From contig JAUSKX010000029.1 of the NCBI GenBank assembly GCA_030646675.1, positions 1-36,201 on the forward strand: DNA of 36,201 nucleotides, written 5' to 3'. Of the stretch, positions 12,160 to 18,852 are shown one piece after another. The stretch comes from Candidatus Azambacteria bacterium (GTDB lineage Bacteria; Patescibacteriota; Minisyncoccia; UBA10092). The notes below the pieces were generated by a model. It made no database searches. It was given only the letters and a program-made list of their open reading frames with translations, and was not told the origin of the DNA. The position numbers and the translations under genes are program-made. Positions within the stretch are counted from its first letter, which is position 1. Every line of letters begins with the position of its first letter.

Positions 12160-12582
12160 TTATTTCAACCATTTTGTTCTTCCTTTTATGTCATTCTTTT
12201 GGGGAGGAACAATACTGACTAATTTCCCGATAAACTTATCAAATTGTTTTTCAAGTTTTTTCAGTTCGCTTCGCTTTTCTAATTTCTTAATAAAAATCTC
12301 ATAATCCCCCTCTGTTTTGTCCATTACTTCTTTTATCCTACACACAGTTGAGGTGCTAACCTTTAAAGCATCGCTGATGTCGCGCTGGCTATAATTCTTG
12401 TTTAATAAAAAGGCGATGGCTAATCTTTTTGCCAACATTATCTTTTCCGTCTTAGTTAAAAGACTATTCAAAAAATTCCTAATATCAGAGTCGTTGTCCA
12501 ATCTTGCCAATAACCACCACAAAGTGGCTTGAATTTCATAGTTGCTTTCTTTGCTTAATGGATTGCGAGAAACCTGACTCAT
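12160..12582 (-). CDS. TrpR-like (YerC/YecD family) HTH protein
   Basis: FLNSLLTKTEKIMLAKRLAIAFLL followed by HTH YSQRDISDALKVSTSTVCRI. Confidence 0.85.
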   Translation of the reverse strand: MSQVSRNPLSKESNYEIQATLWWLLARLDNDSDIRNFLNSLLTKTEKIMLAKRLAIAFLLNKNYSQRDISDALKVSTSTVCRIKEVMDKTEGDYEIFIKKLEKRSELKKLEKQFDKFIGKLVSIVPPQKNDIKGRTKWLK

Positions 12583-12651: not shown

Positions 12652-14934
12652 TTACACTTTAAATCCCTTAAGACGCAAAGAATTGAGGACGACTGAAATT
12701 GAAGAAAATGCCATCGCGGCGCCGGCTAAAATAGGATTCAAAACAATGCCCCAAACGGGGTATAAAACGCCGGCCGCCACCGGAATGAGAATAATATTAT
12801 ACACATATGCCCAAAAAAGATTCTGTTTGATATTCCGTAAAGTTTGTCGGCTTAGCTTTATTGCTTCGTAAACTCCCATCGGGTCGCCGGAAATCAAAGT
12901 AATGTCACTGGATTCAATGGCGATATCGGTGCCGGTGCCGATAGCAATACCGACTTCGGCTTGAGTAAGCGCCGGCGCGTCATTGATGCCGTCGCCGACC
13001 ATGGCCACTTTTTTGCCTTCGGCTTGAAGCGCTTTAATTTTTTCCGATTTTTCATTGGGTAAAACTTTTGCCATTATATTTTTAATGCCGATTTGTCCGC
13101 CGATGGCTTCGGCTGTTCTTTCATTATCTCCCGTAATCATCCATACTTCCAATCCCAAATTTTGCAATAATTTAATAGTTTCAACGGCGCTTTCTTTTAA
13201 TGTATCCGCAACGGCAATAGCGCCAAGCGGTTTATCGGATGCCAAAATTATTACTGTTTTTCCTTCTTTCTCAAGCTTCTGAATTTTATTTTCCTGTTCT
13301 TGAGAAATTTTTATATTTTTTTCGACAAGCAAAGCCCTGTTGCCGAAAAAGAATTTATTTATTTTGCTATCAGCGGCAATGTCGCCTTCCAGTCCTTTAC
13401 CGGGAGTAACCAAAAAATTTTCAACTTTGAAAAGCTCTATTTTTCCGCTTTCGGCCGTTTCTCTTATAGCTTTATCAAGAGGATGAGAGGATGCTTTTCC
13501 TAGACTCGCGGCATAAGCGACGACAGCTTTGGCAATCGGATGTTCAGAAAATTTTTCAAGCGAAGCGGCAACATGCAAAATATCTTCGCCCATTTTCTCG
13601 CTGAAAGCCATAATATCGGTAACTGACGGTTCGCCTTTTGTTAGAGTTCCTGTTTTATCCAAAACAATGGCATTAATTTTTCCCGCCAATTCAAGCGCTT
13701 CGGCGTCTCTTATGATAATGCCGCGTTCCGCCGCTTTGCCCGTTCCAACCATAATTGAAGTCGGCGTGGCTAGCCCTAAAGCGCAAGGGCAAGCCACCAC
13801 TAAAACTGCCACCGCGTTAATCAACGCAAAACTTAAAGAAGATTGCGCGCCCCAAAAAAACCAAACAATAAATGAACCTATAGAAATTACTAAAACAACC
13901 GGCACAAAATATCCGGTTATAGTATCGGCTAATTTTTGAATCGGCGCTTTTGACCCTTGAGCTTCTTCAACCAATTTAACTATTTGAGCTAAAAAAGTTT
14001 CTTTGCCCACTTTGGTTGCCTTAAACTTAAAAGCGCCTGTTTTGTTGATAGTCGCGCCAATAACTCCATCGCCTGTTTTTTTATCAACCGGCATTGATTC
14101 GCCGGTAACCATCGACTCATCAATCGCCGACGCGCCTTCAATAATAATGCCGTCAACCGGAATTTTTTCTCCCGGCTTAACTAAAATAATATCGCCGACT
14201 TTCACATCTTCAATCGGCATTTCCATTTCCTCGCCATTTTCGTGAATGATATGGGCGGTTTTCGCTTGAAGTTTTAATAATTTTTTAATCGCTTCCGAAG
14301 CCGAACCTTTGGCTTTCGCTTCCAAATACTTGCCCAAAATAACCAATGTCACAACTACAGAGGCAACGTCAAAATAGACCTCTAACGGCAATTTGAAAAT
14401 CGTTATGATGGCGCTGTAAATAAACGCCGCGCCAGTACCCAGCGCCACTAGAGTATCCATATTGGCGGTAAAATTTTTCAAGCCGAACCAAGCGCCGCGC
14501 CAAAATTGCCAGCCAATCCAAAATTCAATCGGTGTTGTCAAAATCAAAAGCAACGCGTATCGCCACGGGCCGGGGATTATTTCTGTAAAACTGAAAATCA
14601 TAATTAAAACGGATAATATAGCGCCGATGGTAAATTTCTTTTTCAAGAGCGCGATTTCCGCTTCTTTCAGCATTTTATGATGGTCGTGCTCGCCCTCTGC
14701 AGATTTGGCGGCGGCGGGCTCGCCATTTTGAATAATTAAGTGATAGCCGGTTTTCGCCACAGCGATTTCCATCAATTCCGGCGTTGCCGGTTCTTCATAT
14801 TCTATAACCGCTTTTTCCGACATCATATTTACCGAGGCGCTTTTGACGCCCGGCACTTTTTTTAGCGCTTGTTCAATCGTAAGCGCGCAGGAAACGCAAT
14901 GCATCCCCTGAATCGCAAAAGTTTCTTTTTTCAT
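12652..14934 (-). CDS. copA: Copper-translocating P1B-type ATPase
   Basis: N-terminal HMA GMHCVSC, TGES, CPC, DKTGT, HP, GDGIND, YN and MAFSS Cu(I)-type TM motifs. Confidence 0.95.
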
Positions 14935-15188
14935 TAGGCTAAATCTTTCTTCATTCTTTCGAATTCTTCTCTGTTGATTTCGCCTTTAGCATATCGCTCT
15001 TTAAGAATTTCCAAGGGTATTTTACCGGAAATTCTGGATTTGGATTGATTAATCAACCAGCGGATTAAAACTGCTATTCCAACGATAATCAAAACCCAAA
15101 ACGCCAACATAAAAATCGGCCCAATAACACTAAAAATAGAAAACCCAACACCGCTTGTTCCCCAATCTCCCATCATATTTGAGTACAT
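14934..15188 (-). CDS. SHOCT-domain small membrane protein
   Basis: MMG-type N-terminus, TM helix, [26 protein letters not shown]; stop overlaps the copA start. Confidence 0.88.
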
Positions 15189-15234
15189 ATTTTTTATTCT
15201 AATTATAATGCTTATATCTATTATATCATGATTG

Positions 15235-15957
15235 TCAAGCTGCGCATCCTCCGCCTTCTTGGGGTTGGTCAGGAAACCAAAATGAGTTCATTTGGCGCCC
15301 TGCTTGATACATTTGGCTTTCACTCGCGCTCTGCGACGCCATAAGCTCCAAAAGCCCCAGCATGGCCATGCCGTGGTTGCAATCGGGAAAATACGCCGGA
15401 TTACTGCAGCATGGTCGATAGATATTTTTGCTTGTTTTTTCAACCAGCGCCTGCTGTTCCGGTGTTAGAACGACGAACAAATGCTTGCCATAATGATTCA
15501 TCGCGTTGCCATCGGCCAATGTCCATCCTCCGGTTGAGGCAAATCCGCCGGCGCCGCCGTAACGCGGGTCGTTCATCGGTCCTTTTTCAAGAATTTCATT
15601 TTTATTGCCAAGCCCCAACGCCCAAAATAAATTAAGCAGAAGGCCGGAATTTTCCTGATTTACCGTTAAATTGCCATTTTGCAAGCCGTCAAGAAGTTTT
15701 TTATCGGCGGCGCTTAATCCGCCCCGACTTTCATAAATCGCTTCAAACTGCGCGCGGTCGATTACGCCCGCGCTTATCATTTGTGCGCCAAGATTATTCC
15801 AAGCAACCGGCAATTCAACCGATTGAACGACACTTGGTGCGCGTTCGTTTTTATTTTCTTCATTCGAAACTATTTTTTGATTTACATTTGTCCAGCCGTA
15901 AACGACAACCAGTGTTGAAAGTATTATGCTTGCGGGTATTAGATAACTTTTTTCCAT
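15235..15957 (-). CDS. Membrane-anchored Cys/His-rich hypothetical protein
   Basis: N-terminal TM; RPCCSNPAYFPDCNHGMAM motif; C-terminal GGGC. Confidence 0.75.
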   Translation of the reverse strand: MEKSYLIPASIILSTLVVVYGWTNVNQKIVSNEENKNERAPSVVQSVELPVAWNNLGAQMISAGVIDRAQFEAIYESRGGLSAADKKLLDGLQNGNLTVNQENSGLLLNLFWALGLGNKNEILEKGPMNDPRYGGAGGFASTGGWTLADGNAMNHYGKHLFVVLTPEQQALVEKTSKNIYRPCCSNPAYFPDCNHGMAMLGLLELMASQSASESQMYQAGRQMNSFWFPDQPQEGGGCAA

Positions 15958-15961
15958 TTTT

Positions 15962-16741
15962 TTATACTAAATAAATTATAATTCCTAAAATAATCATGGC
16001 TATACCGCTCCAAAATCTCATGTTCCCCATTTCTTGCTTCTGCCACTCTTGAACTTTATCAAGCACGTTTCTGTCGCTGGCGATAAGAAGCATCACAATC
16101 AAAGGCAGAACAAAAATAAAGTTGTACAAAATCAGATAGCCCAGCCCTTGCCAATAAGTTACCTGGTCATGAAGCAGACCCAAAATCATAACATACGGAC
16201 CGCCGCTGCAGGGCAGGGCGCAAATGCCGACCAAAGCGCCCAAGAGAAATGCGGTGGCAAGCGAACCTTTTTCCATAAGTCCGCCCATTTTTTGATGAGC
16301 AATTTGCGGGATTCTAAGCTTGAGCGGAAATCCGGGAAAAAATACATTAATTAGGTTTAGACCGCCAAGCGCGATAAGTAGTGCCGCTCCGAACTTTGCC
16401 ATAAAGAATGGGACATCAAACAGATGGAACGCCTGAAGAACGCCAACGCCGATTAAAACATACGCCGAAAAAATCCCGAAAACATATATGCCTCCGATTT
16501 TCAATATATTGGCGCGCAACCGGCCGATGCTGAAAAGAAAAGCAATGGTCACAAGAAGAATGGAGAAGGCGCACGGATGAATGCTGTTTACAATAGACGC
16601 CGCCAAAATCAGCGGAAAAAGAAATTTTCCCCCGCCGGATATTTGCCAGAGGAGCGGCGCGCTTTTCATTGAACCCAAAAACCATGCCGAAACGGCAAAA
16701 ACAACGGCAATTAAAACCAGCCAAAATAATCTTTTTTTCAT
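15962..16741 (-). CDS. CcdA/DsbD-type transmembrane thiol-disulfide electron transporter
   Basis: 6-7 TM helices with the two conserved Pro-Cys sites HPCA and LPCSGGPY, and YN.IFVLPL. Confidence 0.85.
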   Translation of the reverse strand: MKKRLFWLVLIAVVFAVSAWFLGSMKSAPLLWQISGGGKFLFPLILAASIVNSIHPCAFSILLVTIAFLFSIGRLRANILKIGGIYVFGIFSAYVLIGVGVLQAFHLFDVPFFMAKFGAALLIALGGLNLINVFFPGFPLKLRIPQIAHQKMGGLMEKGSLATAFLLGALVGICALPCSGGPYVMILGLLHDQVTYWQGLGYLILYNFIFVLPLIVMLLIASDRNVLDKVQEWQKQEMGNMRFWSGIAMIILGIIIYLV

Positions 16742-17247
16742 GGCGTTACAACTGCTTTAAACTGCAACGATATCGGTTCTTGCTCAGCGCCTGTGGAAAC
16801 CACAATTTGTCTTTCAATCGGGCCGACGCCGGACGGGCCATGGGCCGCGGGGTCAAAGATCGCTTTCACTATTAACGTTTCACCCGGTTTTACGACCAAA
16901 TTGGCCTTGCGCCCGCCTCCATGGCCTTGCATGCCGAATGGACCGGCAAATTTATTGCCTACTTTTAATTCGGCTTCGGTGCACATACAGGAAGTAAACA
17001 CTTCGCCGATTTGAACATTTTTATCGCTTTTATTTTCCAGCAAAAATTCTTTGTTCACTTTTCCTTTTGCCATTGATACCGTCCCGAAATCATAACTGTT
17101 TTCAATAACGAAAAGTGTCCCACCCAATTCTCCGCCGATAACAGCAGGAACTTCTTGCCCAACACTATTGGTAAGCCACGCGAGACCGGCGACAATAACT
17201 GCTATAATTCCCAGTAAAATCAATACTTGTTTAATTTGTTCTTTCAT
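16738..17247 (-). CDS. DUF1573-like Ig-fold protein with CxC motif
   Basis: N-terminal TM, YDFGTV, TSCMCT, FGMQGHG, FDPAAHGPSGVG; ATG at 17247 preferred. Confidence 0.8.
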   Translation of the reverse strand: MKEQIKQVLILLGIIAVIVAGLAWLTNSVGQEVPAVIGGELGGTLFVIENSYDFGTVSMAKGKVNKEFLLENKSDKNVQIGEVFTSCMCTEAELKVGNKFAGPFGMQGHGGGRKANLVVKPGETLIVKAIFDPAAHGPSGVGPIERQIVVSTGAEQEPISLQFKAVVTP

Positions 17248-17266
17248 ATTTTTCTTAATTAATAAC

Positions 17267-17288
17267 AAAAAATCCCTGAATCAGGGAT
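17267..17288 (-). terminator. Terminator/attenuator hairpin between the leader ORF and the DUF1573 gene
   Basis: Minus strand ATCCCTG-ATT-CAGGGAT followed by TTTTTGTT. Confidence 0.6.
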
Positions 17289-17291
17289 ACA

Positions 17292-17340
17292 AAAACGCAG
17301 ACATAAAGCCGCCGACCAGCGAATTTTATATCTGCGTTTT
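17292..17340 (-). promoter_or_regulatory. Long RNA hairpin overlapping the stop codon of the leader ORF
   Basis: AAAACGCAGATATAAA pairs with TTTATGTCTGCGTTTT (16 bp, one G-U), plus apical TCGCT/GGCGG. Confidence 0.7.
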
Positions 17341-17710
17341 ATTCGGTATTCGGACTGTTTTCAAAAAGAGAAAGCCACGAAATTTGTTTGTGTTTTTTGA
17401 CGGTGGTATTTTCCAAAATTCCGCGCCCAAAAAAACGTTTATCTGTGTAAAAATCTCCGGCGGAAAAAACATAAGAAATAAAAACCGCCAAAATGGAAAC
17501 TGCCGCCAAAGCCGCCGTTAGAAGAGCTTCGGAAAAATTCCTGACAAAATTAACATGCATGCCTATGTAGGCCAGAACATTAAACAGAGGACAAGCCGTG
17601 CCCGCGGCGTAAGACGCGACGCAATCGCCATGTTCGCCCATGGTCAAAAGACCGATTACGACGCCGCCCGCAAGACCGGCAATTATTAGAATTGTTAGGA
17701 GAGATTTCAT
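17339..17710 (-). CDS. Small membrane protein, candidate metal-sensing leader peptide
   Basis: 123 aa, two hydrophobic segments flanking H-x2-C-x9-CP..MH, C-terminus WLSLFENSPNTE; ATG at 17710 preferred. Confidence 0.7.
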   Translation of the reverse strand: MKSLLTILIIAGLAGGVVIGLLTMGEHGDCVASYAAGTACPLFNVLAYIGMHVNFVRNFSEALLTAALAAVSILAVFISYVFSAGDFYTDKRFFGRGILENTTVKKHKQISWLSLFENSPNTE

Positions 17711-17730
17711 AGATATTTTGTATATTAGCA

Positions 17731-18852
17731 TTATTTGACCATTACTGCAACTTCAGCAGCGATTTGGGACATTTCGTCTGTCGTGATTACGGCGATTTTT
17801 ACCGGCGATTCGTCTTTACCGATAAAGCCATCTACACTAATAGTTTTGTTATTTTTTTCATTGTCCAAAACAATCCCCAGATTTTCGAGTTCCGAGCAAA
17901 TTCTTGCGCGCATAATCGCCGAACGCTCGCCGATTGTCGCCGAAAATACCAAAAGAACGGCGCCGTTTAACGCCGCAAAATAAGAACCGATATATTTTTT
18001 GATTTTATAAACCATAATTTCCAGCGCTAGTTTGGCATTTTCATCGCCATTCTTTTCCATTTCCAAAAGTTCTTTCACATCGTTGCTTTTCCCGGATAGC
18101 CCCAAAAGCCCGCATTGAGTATTCAAATAATTTTCCATTTCATCCGGTTCGTAGCCGAATTTTTTTGATAAATAAACAACCGCTCCGGCATCAATGTCGC
18201 CTACCCTGTTTGCCATAACAACGCCCTCAAGCGGAGTAAAACCCATCGAAGTGTCAATGCTTTGGCCTTCTTTAATTGCCACAATGCTTGAACCTCCCCC
18301 CAAATGACAAATTATTATTTTTTCCGGCAGATTGCCGCTGTAAATATTTTTCAATTTGCCGACAACGGATTCGAACGAAATGCCGTGATAGCCGAATCTA
18401 AAAATATCCAGTTCTTCGGCTGTATTTTTGGGAATGCCGTAAAGCCTCGCGCGGGCGGGCATCGAGCCGTGAAACGCGCTATCGGAAACTCCGACAACGG
18501 GAATGCCCGGCAATATTTGTTCAAGCGCTTTCAACTCGGCAAGCATCGGGTTTATATGAAGCGGAGCCTGTTCTTTCGCCGCCTCCAGTTTTGCCATATA
18601 CTCTCCGTCTATAATTTTATTTTGTAAAAAATAACTTCCGGGAGCGACAACGCGAAAACCGATTGCGAAAATTTCATTTGGAGCGCCGATTAATTTTTGT
18701 TCCAAAAGCTGGCCAATAACATATTCGGTGGAATTTTCAATAAGTTTGCCGTTTTCCTTTTCAAAATGCGCGGAAAATACGCATTCACCGTCTTGGTATA
18801 GCGCGTATTTTCTTGATTCGCTTCCGACATTAACTATAAAAATTTTATTCAT
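17731..18852 (-). CDS. ackA: Acetate kinase
   Basis: VNVGSES.K, APLH, DSAFH, RFGYHG, CHLGGGSS, DTSMGFTPLEG, TDE. Confidence 0.95.
   Translation of the reverse strand: MNKIFIVNVGSESRKYALYQDGECVFSAHFEKENGKLIENSTEYVIGQLLEQKLIGAPNEIFAIGFRVVAPGSYFLQNKIIDGEYMAKLEAAKEQAPLHINPMLAELKALEQILPGIPVVGVSDSAFHGSMPARARLYGIPKNTAEELDIFRFGYHGISFESVVGKLKNIYSGNLPEKIIICHLGGGSSIVAIKEGQSIDTSMGFTPLEGVVMANRVGDIDAGAVVYLSKKFGYEPDEMENYLNTQCGLLGLSGKSNDVKELLEMEKNGDENAKLALEIMVYKIKKYIGSYFAALNGAVLLVFSATIGERSAIMRARICSELENLGIVLDNEKNNKTISVDGFIGKDESPVKIAVITTDEMSQIAAEVAVMVK

Follow-up and report, generated by a model that had tools for sequence, protein, structure and literature searches.

A conserved two-helix membrane protein with a C-terminal W-L-x-L-H-E-N-S-P motif and two downstream RNA hairpins: a candidate leader cassette of copper/thiol operons in Patescibacteria

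The described systems closest to the one presented here are small upstream open reading frames (uORFs) whose nascent products arrest the ribosome. In Rhodobacter capsulatus, copper bound by the exported nascent chain of CutF prolongs stalling at a C-terminal PPP motif, and the stalled ribosome melts a stem-loop over cutO's ribosome-binding site (PMC9973294; bioRxiv 10.1101/2025.02.05.636593). The list of CutF-like proteins consists mostly of Pseudomonadota and Bacteroidota members, and the word Patescibacteria is absent from the main text of that report (PMC9973294). Arrest at the RAPP motif of CruR in Bordetella pertussis controls Rho-dependent termination after the uORF (PMC9426467), and in Streptomyces lividans arrest peptides with several transmembrane (TM) helices and RAPP or RGPP motifs precede copper and thioredoxin genes (PMC12992588). 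A narrow spacer has been described for insertion-monitoring arrest peptides, including MifM (PMC10987492), and the critical residues of MifM include W73-I74, M80-N81 and then S82 (PMC4423224). Here we describe a locus on contig JAUSKX010000029.1 (assembly GCA_030646675.1) of a Candidatus Azambacteria bacterium, of which the whole 36,201-nucleotide stretch analysed is referred to as the window. It contains an ORF that we label FAM, as we do its family, followed on its 3' side by two hairpins, H1 and H2, and then by copper- and thiol-related genes. We consider the chances about even (probability roughly 0.5) that the FAM ORF, H1 and H2 form one regulatory leader or sensor cassette of the CutF/CruR/MifM kind, heading a copper/thiol operon. 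What is known here is the conservation throughout the family, the leader position, the RNA module and the fixed spacing between its parts. The elements in the window are:

17339..17710, minus strand: FAM ORF, 123 residues, conserved form with its start at 17710
17351..17377, minus strand: codons for W112-L-S-L-F-E-N-S-P120, where conservation within the family is highest
17339-17350, minus strand: three-residue tail NTE and stop codon, directly after the P120 codon
17292..17340, minus strand: hairpin H1, 21 pairs in the minimum free energy fold, 63 bits to the covariance model R1
17272..17288, minus strand: hairpin H2, AUCCCUG-AUU-CAGGGAU, 7 pairs of which 4 are GC
17266..17288, minus strand: H2 with its U tract (TTTTTTG after the stem), with the look of an intrinsic terminator
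17722..17750, minus strand: possible weak FAM promoter (TTGCAG, 17 nt, TAATAT, 11 nt to the ATG), read by eye inside the end of ackA

The longest reading of the FAM frame in the ORF listing covers 17339..17731 on the minus strand (130 residues); since homologues begin at the internal MKSLL, the 123-residue form is taken to be the conserved one. The initial annotation had described a two-TM ORF of 123 residues with an H-x2-C-x9-CP...MH loop and the C-terminal end WLSLFENSPNTE, and each of these elements was found in its place. The translation carries H27-G-D-C30, C30-x9-C40-P41 and M51-H52, the stretch between the helices reads EHGDCVASYAAGTACP...GMH, and the C-terminus is ISWLSLFENSPNTE. In the AlphaFold2 (AF2) model (predicted local distance difference test score, pLDDT, 81) helices span residues 2-26 (TM1), 31-36, 45-89 (juxtamembrane segment and TM2) and 91-117 (tail), and the second hydrophobic helix of the window protein covers approximately residues 62-83. 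The conserved residues H27, C30, C40, P41 and H52 are all placed between the TM helices. Judged from the charge distribution in the sequence, the segment between the two TM helices that carries the Cys and His residues would face outward.

Close homologues of the FAM protein number 23, and a profile search retrieved 652 representatives at E<=0.001. The named records all belong to Patescibacteria, with the exception of one contig that is probably misbinned: this locus (L003) is labelled Thermodesulfovibrionia, in its arrangement and its protein it is almost identical to the Vogelbacteria locus L004, and it is probably a Patescibacteria contig. The FAM ORF has no family in Pfam or NCBIfam; Pfam searches with 100 members at E<=10 gave nothing but scattered chance matches, a PDB sequence profile search returned two rows at chance level, and Foldseek against the PDB found nothing at E<=0.001. 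No longer or fused forms were present among 8000 candidates, which is weak evidence that they do not occur. In an unbiased sample of 401 Patescibacteria genomes, based on a hidden Markov model, FAM was carried by 19 genomes at 20 places.

Of 150 representatives, 143 have a W-x6-SP signature no more than 13 residues from the C-terminus. The consensus of the tail is (R/Q)(K/Q)(L/F)(I/L)(R/S/H)-W-L-[SA]-L-H-E-N-S-P-[SATN]-[FLV]-x, and a variant with Phe at the His position also exists ([HF]). The codons of the motif differ synonymously (Leu is CTT or TTA, Ser is TCT or AGT, and all four Pro codons occur), so it is as a peptide that the motif is conserved. Outside the motif, C40 is invariant, C30 nearly so, and G20, H52, F59 and S60 are conserved. 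TM2 and the motif Pro are separated by a median of 41 residues in the representatives (interquartile range 39-43, measured by a crude hydrophobicity rule) and by about 37 in the window (counted by hand); of this stretch the length is conserved, but the sequence is not. The 20 places in the genome sample are more varied: E/Q-N/H-S-P occurs at eight and EKRDP at three, while seven have no Pro but retain W-L-x-L, one lacks the W motif and one is broken.

Directly behind the FAM ORF of the window, the stop codon TAA (17339-17341) overlaps the base of H1, which begins 14 nt downstream of the Pro codon's first base, has a stability of -23.8 kcal/mol and holds GGUCGG in its apical loop. H2 follows after a gap of 3 nt, and the ATG of the DUF1573 gene (conserved start MKEQIK) is at 17247, about 19 nt past the U tract. 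The initial annotation had placed a hairpin at 17292-17340 with the stop codon over its base, and close behind it a second hairpin with a U tract about 20 nt before the first gene; both hairpins are upheld. The 151 nt of positions 17240-17390 (minus strand) fold at -43.4 kcal/mol (z = -4.55), and none of 200 shuffled sequences folded as well. A search of Rfam 15 with positions 16900-17800 gave no matches at E<=1.

Motif, hairpins and gene linkage recur together in 139 related loci, and the conservation of the Cys pair, the C-terminal motif, the hairpins and the link to copper/thiol genes among homologues agrees with what the initial annotation had anticipated. Counted from the first base of the Pro codon, a stable hairpin begins at a distance of 10-25 nt in 89 of the 121 unique downstream regions (mean 16.3, standard deviation (SD) 2.4), and in 80 of those 89 a short hairpin with a U tract follows within 9 nt of H1. 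The distance from H1 to the stop codon is much more variable in the same regions (SD 6.1, range -25 to +12), the position of H1 being tied to the Pro codon instead. A three-residue tail follows the motif Pro in 92 of the 143 representatives. Behind FAM tails of 2, 3, 4, 6, 7, 8 and 12 residues, H1 keeps about the same place. Of 37 FAM ends, 27 are followed by the tandem H1-H2 form, as compared to 7 of the 197 remaining gene ends of these loci, which are related and not independent of each other.

H1 is also conserved in sequence, with a GC-rich base at the stop, the stem GAUAUAAAAC/GUUUUAUAUC and the apical-loop GUCG. This loop, GUCG(A/G/U), corresponding to 17310-17320 (minus strand) in the window, is kept across subfamilies, including the most AT-rich clade. 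RNAalifold on a plain MAFFT alignment of 49 sequences yielded the basal helix only, and a subset with the covariance model R1 was used instead. In the alignment of 64 matches fitted to this model, 90.6% of the H1 cells are paired, as compared to 38-56% when the partner strand is slid, compensatory changes occur in 20 of 21 pairs, and G-U pairs are frequent. In the organism's own genome a single site matches R1 strongly (63 bits); the second-best independent site reaches 19 bits, and the antisense match on the window H1 itself 28.9 bits. Searches of 151 genomes of the class gave six matches of at least 33 bits, all six directly after a FAM ORF; the 15 weaker matches examined comprised six behind FAM ORFs and nine ordinary terminators. 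Over 97 loci (744 kb), 64 of 64 R1 matches are at FAM ends. The H1-H2 module was found behind the FAM ORF only. Two other roles were considered for H1: frameshifting is ruled out by the lack of a slippery heptamer and by the varying codons, and a DNA operator is disfavoured by the frequent G-U pairs and by the strand asymmetry of the scores.

One clade differs in its arrangement (loci L016, L021, L022, L023, L033, L035, L037, L040-L042, L044, L048, L053 and L054). Here 75 codons of the FAM frame past NSP are free of stops, and the frame crosses a 66-residue YHS-like ORF in another frame, which is why a protein of 205 residues appears in the gene list. A 10-bp helix pairs the codons just past NSP with the AUG of the YHS-like ORF, so that the hairpin masks the next start codon, much as cutO's ribosome-binding site is masked in the CutF system. 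In a few loci with short gaps the hairpin likewise extends to the next start codon. Unlike in CutF, the hairpins of most FAM loci, the window included, are clear of the next start codon, and only the terminator-like U-tract hairpin H2 intervenes.

Promoter positions bear on the leader position of the ORF. Sigma70-like promoter matches were found before FAM in 41 of 113 unique regions, and before the next gene in 5 of 106; when the -10 box had to end 4-20 nt before the ATG, the numbers were 39 of 113 and 3 of 106. Since promoters lie before FAM and rarely before the next gene, FAM heads the transcription unit in these relatives, which bears out the leader role given to the ORF in the initial annotation, and expression of the genes behind it apparently requires transcription through H1-H2. 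Clear -35/-10 promoters 10-60 nt 5' of the FAM start are seen in L087, L096, L101, L103, L106, L107, L111, L117, L121 and others. A GC-rich inverted repeat, TACCC-n-GGGTA, of what we take to be the CsoR-operator type lies at most 90 nt 5' of the FAM ATG in 19 of 113 regions and, in the examples read, between the -35 and -10 boxes. The same pattern also occurs in L086 and on an H2-like palindrome in six loci of the DsbD_TM clade; the latter were rejected as look-alikes and not operators.

When set beside CutF, FAM is likewise a small ORF (123 residues, below 150) directly 5' of copper genes on the same strand, with a putative membrane/export signal, paired Cys residues that would face outward, a conserved Pro-containing C-terminal motif and a stem-loop right after the ORF. 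The differences are that 0 of 100 FAM members match DUF2946 (PF11162), the family of CutF, even at E<=10, and that, where CutF has a cleaved signal peptide, CxxxC and PPP, FAM has two TM helices, C-x9-C with His, and W-L-x-L-H-E-N-S-P with its single Pro. Among named ESM clusters DUF2946 lies closest to FAM (score 0.82), a weak lead. Like CruR, FAM is a uORF at the head of a copper-related operon; unlike CruR, which has RAPP and CXXC motifs and acts through Rho, and where copper switches the operon off, the FAM barrier looks intrinsic and the operon appears to serve detoxification. The analogy with CutF and CruR made in the initial annotation thus holds for the leader position, the Cys pair, the motif and the hairpins, but not for membership of DUF2946 or a PP or RAPP motif. 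By the sequence tests made (DUF2946, polyproline, TM count and Cys spacing), the FAM cassette may be described as one that would work like CutF/CruR yet stands outside their family.

Other arrest peptides offer further parallels. A published search looked for uORFs of unknown function with an N-terminal signal or TM helix, a conserved C-terminus and a spacer of more than 30 residues (PMC10987492); FAM has all four properties, and it precedes copper/thiol genes instead of sec or yidC. With MifM it shares the TM segment, the spacer of fixed length, the conserved C-terminal region and the hairpin before the regulated gene. The W-I...M-N-S residues of MifM loosely resemble the W-L...N-S of FAM, without any claim of sequence homology, but the stall of MifM occurs 6-9 residues further downstream, at an acidic run for which FAM has no counterpart. 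The S. lividans peptides are similarly small multi-TM proteins with conserved Cys/His residues located 5' of metal/thiol-redox genes, but FAM has neither RAPP nor RGPP. As in the trp, his and pyrBI attenuators, the ORF ends at a hairpin and a U-tract terminator hairpin precedes the operon; unlike these, FAM has no regulatory codons and no alternative antiterminator, and it is a conserved membrane protein of 123 residues instead of a short peptide.

A more specific model can be outlined, which we regard as less likely than not. FAM would be a new arrest-sensor class of Patescibacteria, in which a two-TM chain reads the extracytoplasmic copper/thiol state, a non-polyproline W-L-x-L-H-E-N-S-P stall acts against H1 as a roadblock, and the stall gates an intrinsic terminator; it would be the only copper switch where CsoR, MerR_1 and CopY are missing. 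In the leader cassette favoured above, the protein would be translated from an mRNA with a short leader and would enter the membrane such that its two ends stay in the cytoplasm and the His/Cys loop points outward, where this loop presumably senses the metal. The 37-43 residues past TM2 would correspond to about one length of the ribosomal tunnel, so that with the ribosome at N-S-P the two-helix sensor would just have emerged and the conserved 14-16 residues would fill the tunnel. The tail, together with H1 as a roadblock at the leading edge of the ribosome, could then cause a pause or arrest, whose length would be set by the copper/thiol state of the loop via the pulling force on the chain, as for CutF. 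The position of the ribosome at the FAM end would decide on expression passing H1-H2 into the DUF1573-CcdA-Cys-rich-SHOCT-copA genes. A further idea is that the folded H1 strengthens H2, and that a ribosome reaching the stop melts the base of H1. In the 205-residue clade and the few short-gap loci, the hairpin after the Pro codon would mask the next start, following the logic of CutF and MifM.

Several points weigh against a leader cassette of this kind. Ribosome arrest at the FAM tail is itself inferred; the motif matches no known arrest class, has a single Pro, and no PP, PPP, RAPP or RGPP occurs within the last 15 residues. In the sequences compared NSP is not universal, whereas W-L-x-L and the hairpin at the ORF end are. 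G20, F59 and S60 are conserved in the N-terminal two thirds, as in an ordinary folded membrane protein, and AF2 draws the tail as a plain helix to E117. The constant position of H1 could be inherited, not selected, and with a ribosome footprint of the size that we assume, H1 lies just outside, not inside, the footprint of a ribosome with the Pro in the P or A site. In the window, FAM follows ackA and its promoter region has no match at the scan threshold. In constrained folds with ribosome footprints imposed (blocked to +15, +22, +30 or +38), no antiterminator emerged, H2 staying folded in 26 of 28 loci, window included; as no structure removes H2, the link between ribosome position and termination has no predicted mechanism. 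The same folds bear on the alternative pairing that the initial annotation had proposed to invade the terminator arm, and this pairing was not borne out. It would make the locus a classical attenuator, in which stalling of the ribosome would allow CAGAUAUAAAA to base-pair with UUUUGUAU-CC-CUG, thereby blocking the terminator. The two segments are indeed partly complementary in the window and the terminator-like H2 does lie behind FAM, but H2 is intact under all footprints in those loci, the 5' partner would be under or beside the stalled ribosome, H1 is far more stable, and the pairing is not conserved in the alignments; we regard this explanation as very improbable.

A rival that deserves more weight, although we think it rather doubtful, is that FAM is a stable two-TM copper/thiol-binding protein working with the CcdA/DsbD-type and Cys-rich proteins, its tail being a cytoplasmic interaction motif and H1-H2 acting as a partial terminator within the operon, or as an mRNA stabiliser, to favour the first product over the rest. 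Consistent with this are the conserved ligand-like and TM residues, the confident two-helix AF2 fold with a helical tail (pLDDT 81), the presence of a DsbD-superfamily membrane gene in nearly all FAM loci, the distant members that alter NSP while retaining W-L-x-L, and the lack of a predicted antiterminator. Conservation of the tail, however, exceeds that of the putative ligands, while the gene next to it downstream is not constant; the spacer keeps to a narrow range of lengths; and a plain terminator would need neither the conserved sequence of H1 nor its fixed distance to the Pro codon. Moreover, the downstream genes manage without FAM: among the 401 genomes the Cys-rich gene was found in 32 and FAM in 19, but both in only nine, leaving 23 of the 32 genomes with a Cys-rich gene and no FAM. 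In 16 FAM-less loci, where DUF1573 and DsbD-type genes lie directly behind CopA, CsoR or a promoter, R1 had no matches. Because the ORF and the hairpins are present or absent as a unit, with the downstream genes retained in either case, a regulatory add-on fits better than an obligatory subunit. Control could also be centred on the RNA, the GUCG loop of H1 binding some factor, such as a protein, by which termination at H2 is controlled, with the tail conserved for another reason. The loop and stem sequences are conserved across subfamilies, G-U pairs and the much lower antisense scores point to a sense-strand RNA, and no Rfam family matches; but the RNA was never found without the FAM ORF, its position is tied to the Pro codon, and a hairpin of this size with no conserved internal loops is small for a ligand sensor, which makes this explanation improbable.

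If the leader cassette with its nascent-chain sensor is real, metal sensing of the CutF and CruR type would reach a third, unrelated protein family as well as the Candidate Phyla Radiation. To our knowledge, gene regulation in this radiation is almost unexplored, and a literature search on Patescibacteria with arrest peptides or ribosome stalling found no such system among the papers listed. An arrest motif with neither RAPP nor polyproline would be added, and arrest would be coupled to a module made up of an intrinsic terminator and a dedicated conserved hairpin, a kind of output that is not described in the cited literature. It would also account for the control of copA in a 448-kb genome without a recognisable copper regulator. 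Even without arrest, an unnamed protein family (the 652 representatives), a new conserved RNA motif and the gene set that they precede (DUF1573, CcdA/DsbD and Cys-rich) have been defined.

The genes downstream of the cassette in the window were identified by profile matches, which support the DUF1573-CcdA-Cys-rich-SHOCT-copA order of the initial annotation:

16738..17247, minus strand: DUF1573 protein (N-terminal TM helix and Ig-like domain), first downstream gene
15962-16741, minus strand: CcdA/DsbD-like membrane protein (weak NCBIfam ArsG/DsbD matches)
15235-15957, minus strand: Cys-rich protein of 240 residues, no Pfam family
14934-15188, minus strand: SHOCT protein, within the tightly packed run 12652..16741
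12652-14934, minus strand: CopA-type P-type ATPase with HMA domain, end of the tightly packed run

Upstream of FAM in the window are genes for phosphoketolase and acetate kinase (ackA). Among the relatives, the H-variant of the motif is the commoner one: in 54 of its 70 loci FAM is followed on the same strand by DUF1573, varying and unrelated genes lie on the upstream side (on the opposite strand in 18 of 70), and several clusters terminate with csoR. In the 59 F-variant loci FAM is followed by DUF1573 (34 loci), a YHS/DUF305 pair (13), a gene of the DsbD_TM type (seven) or another gene (five), and CopA is directly upstream of FAM in 25. Next genes other than DUF1573 are DsbD-type, AhpC or YHS/DUF305 genes. 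The Cys-rich protein has an invariant block, R-P-C-C-x-N...F-P-D-C-N-H-G-x-A-M-L-G.

The initial annotation had seen no CsoR, CueR or CopY gene in the window; correspondingly, a scan of the organism's own genome (448 kb, 92% complete) revealed no CsoR, MerR_1, CopY/BlaI or DUF2946. A gene for a TrpR/YerC-like helix-turn-helix protein (12160-12582, minus strand) follows copA, likewise in the closest relatives L001 and L002, and may be a regulator of the copper cluster. In the FAM-less locus L209, an AT-flanked CsoR-box-like palindrome, CCCCCCAGGGGGG, lies about 40 nt before the DUF1573 start, where other loci have the FAM cassette. Finally, a Shine-Dalgarno-like sequence was found at only 7 of the 35 long ORFs in the window, and in several window ORFs, e.g. 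109-1944, the start codon is preceded at 6-12 nt by a -10-like box, a sequence pattern which suggests that leaderless mRNAs or mRNAs with very short leaders are common.

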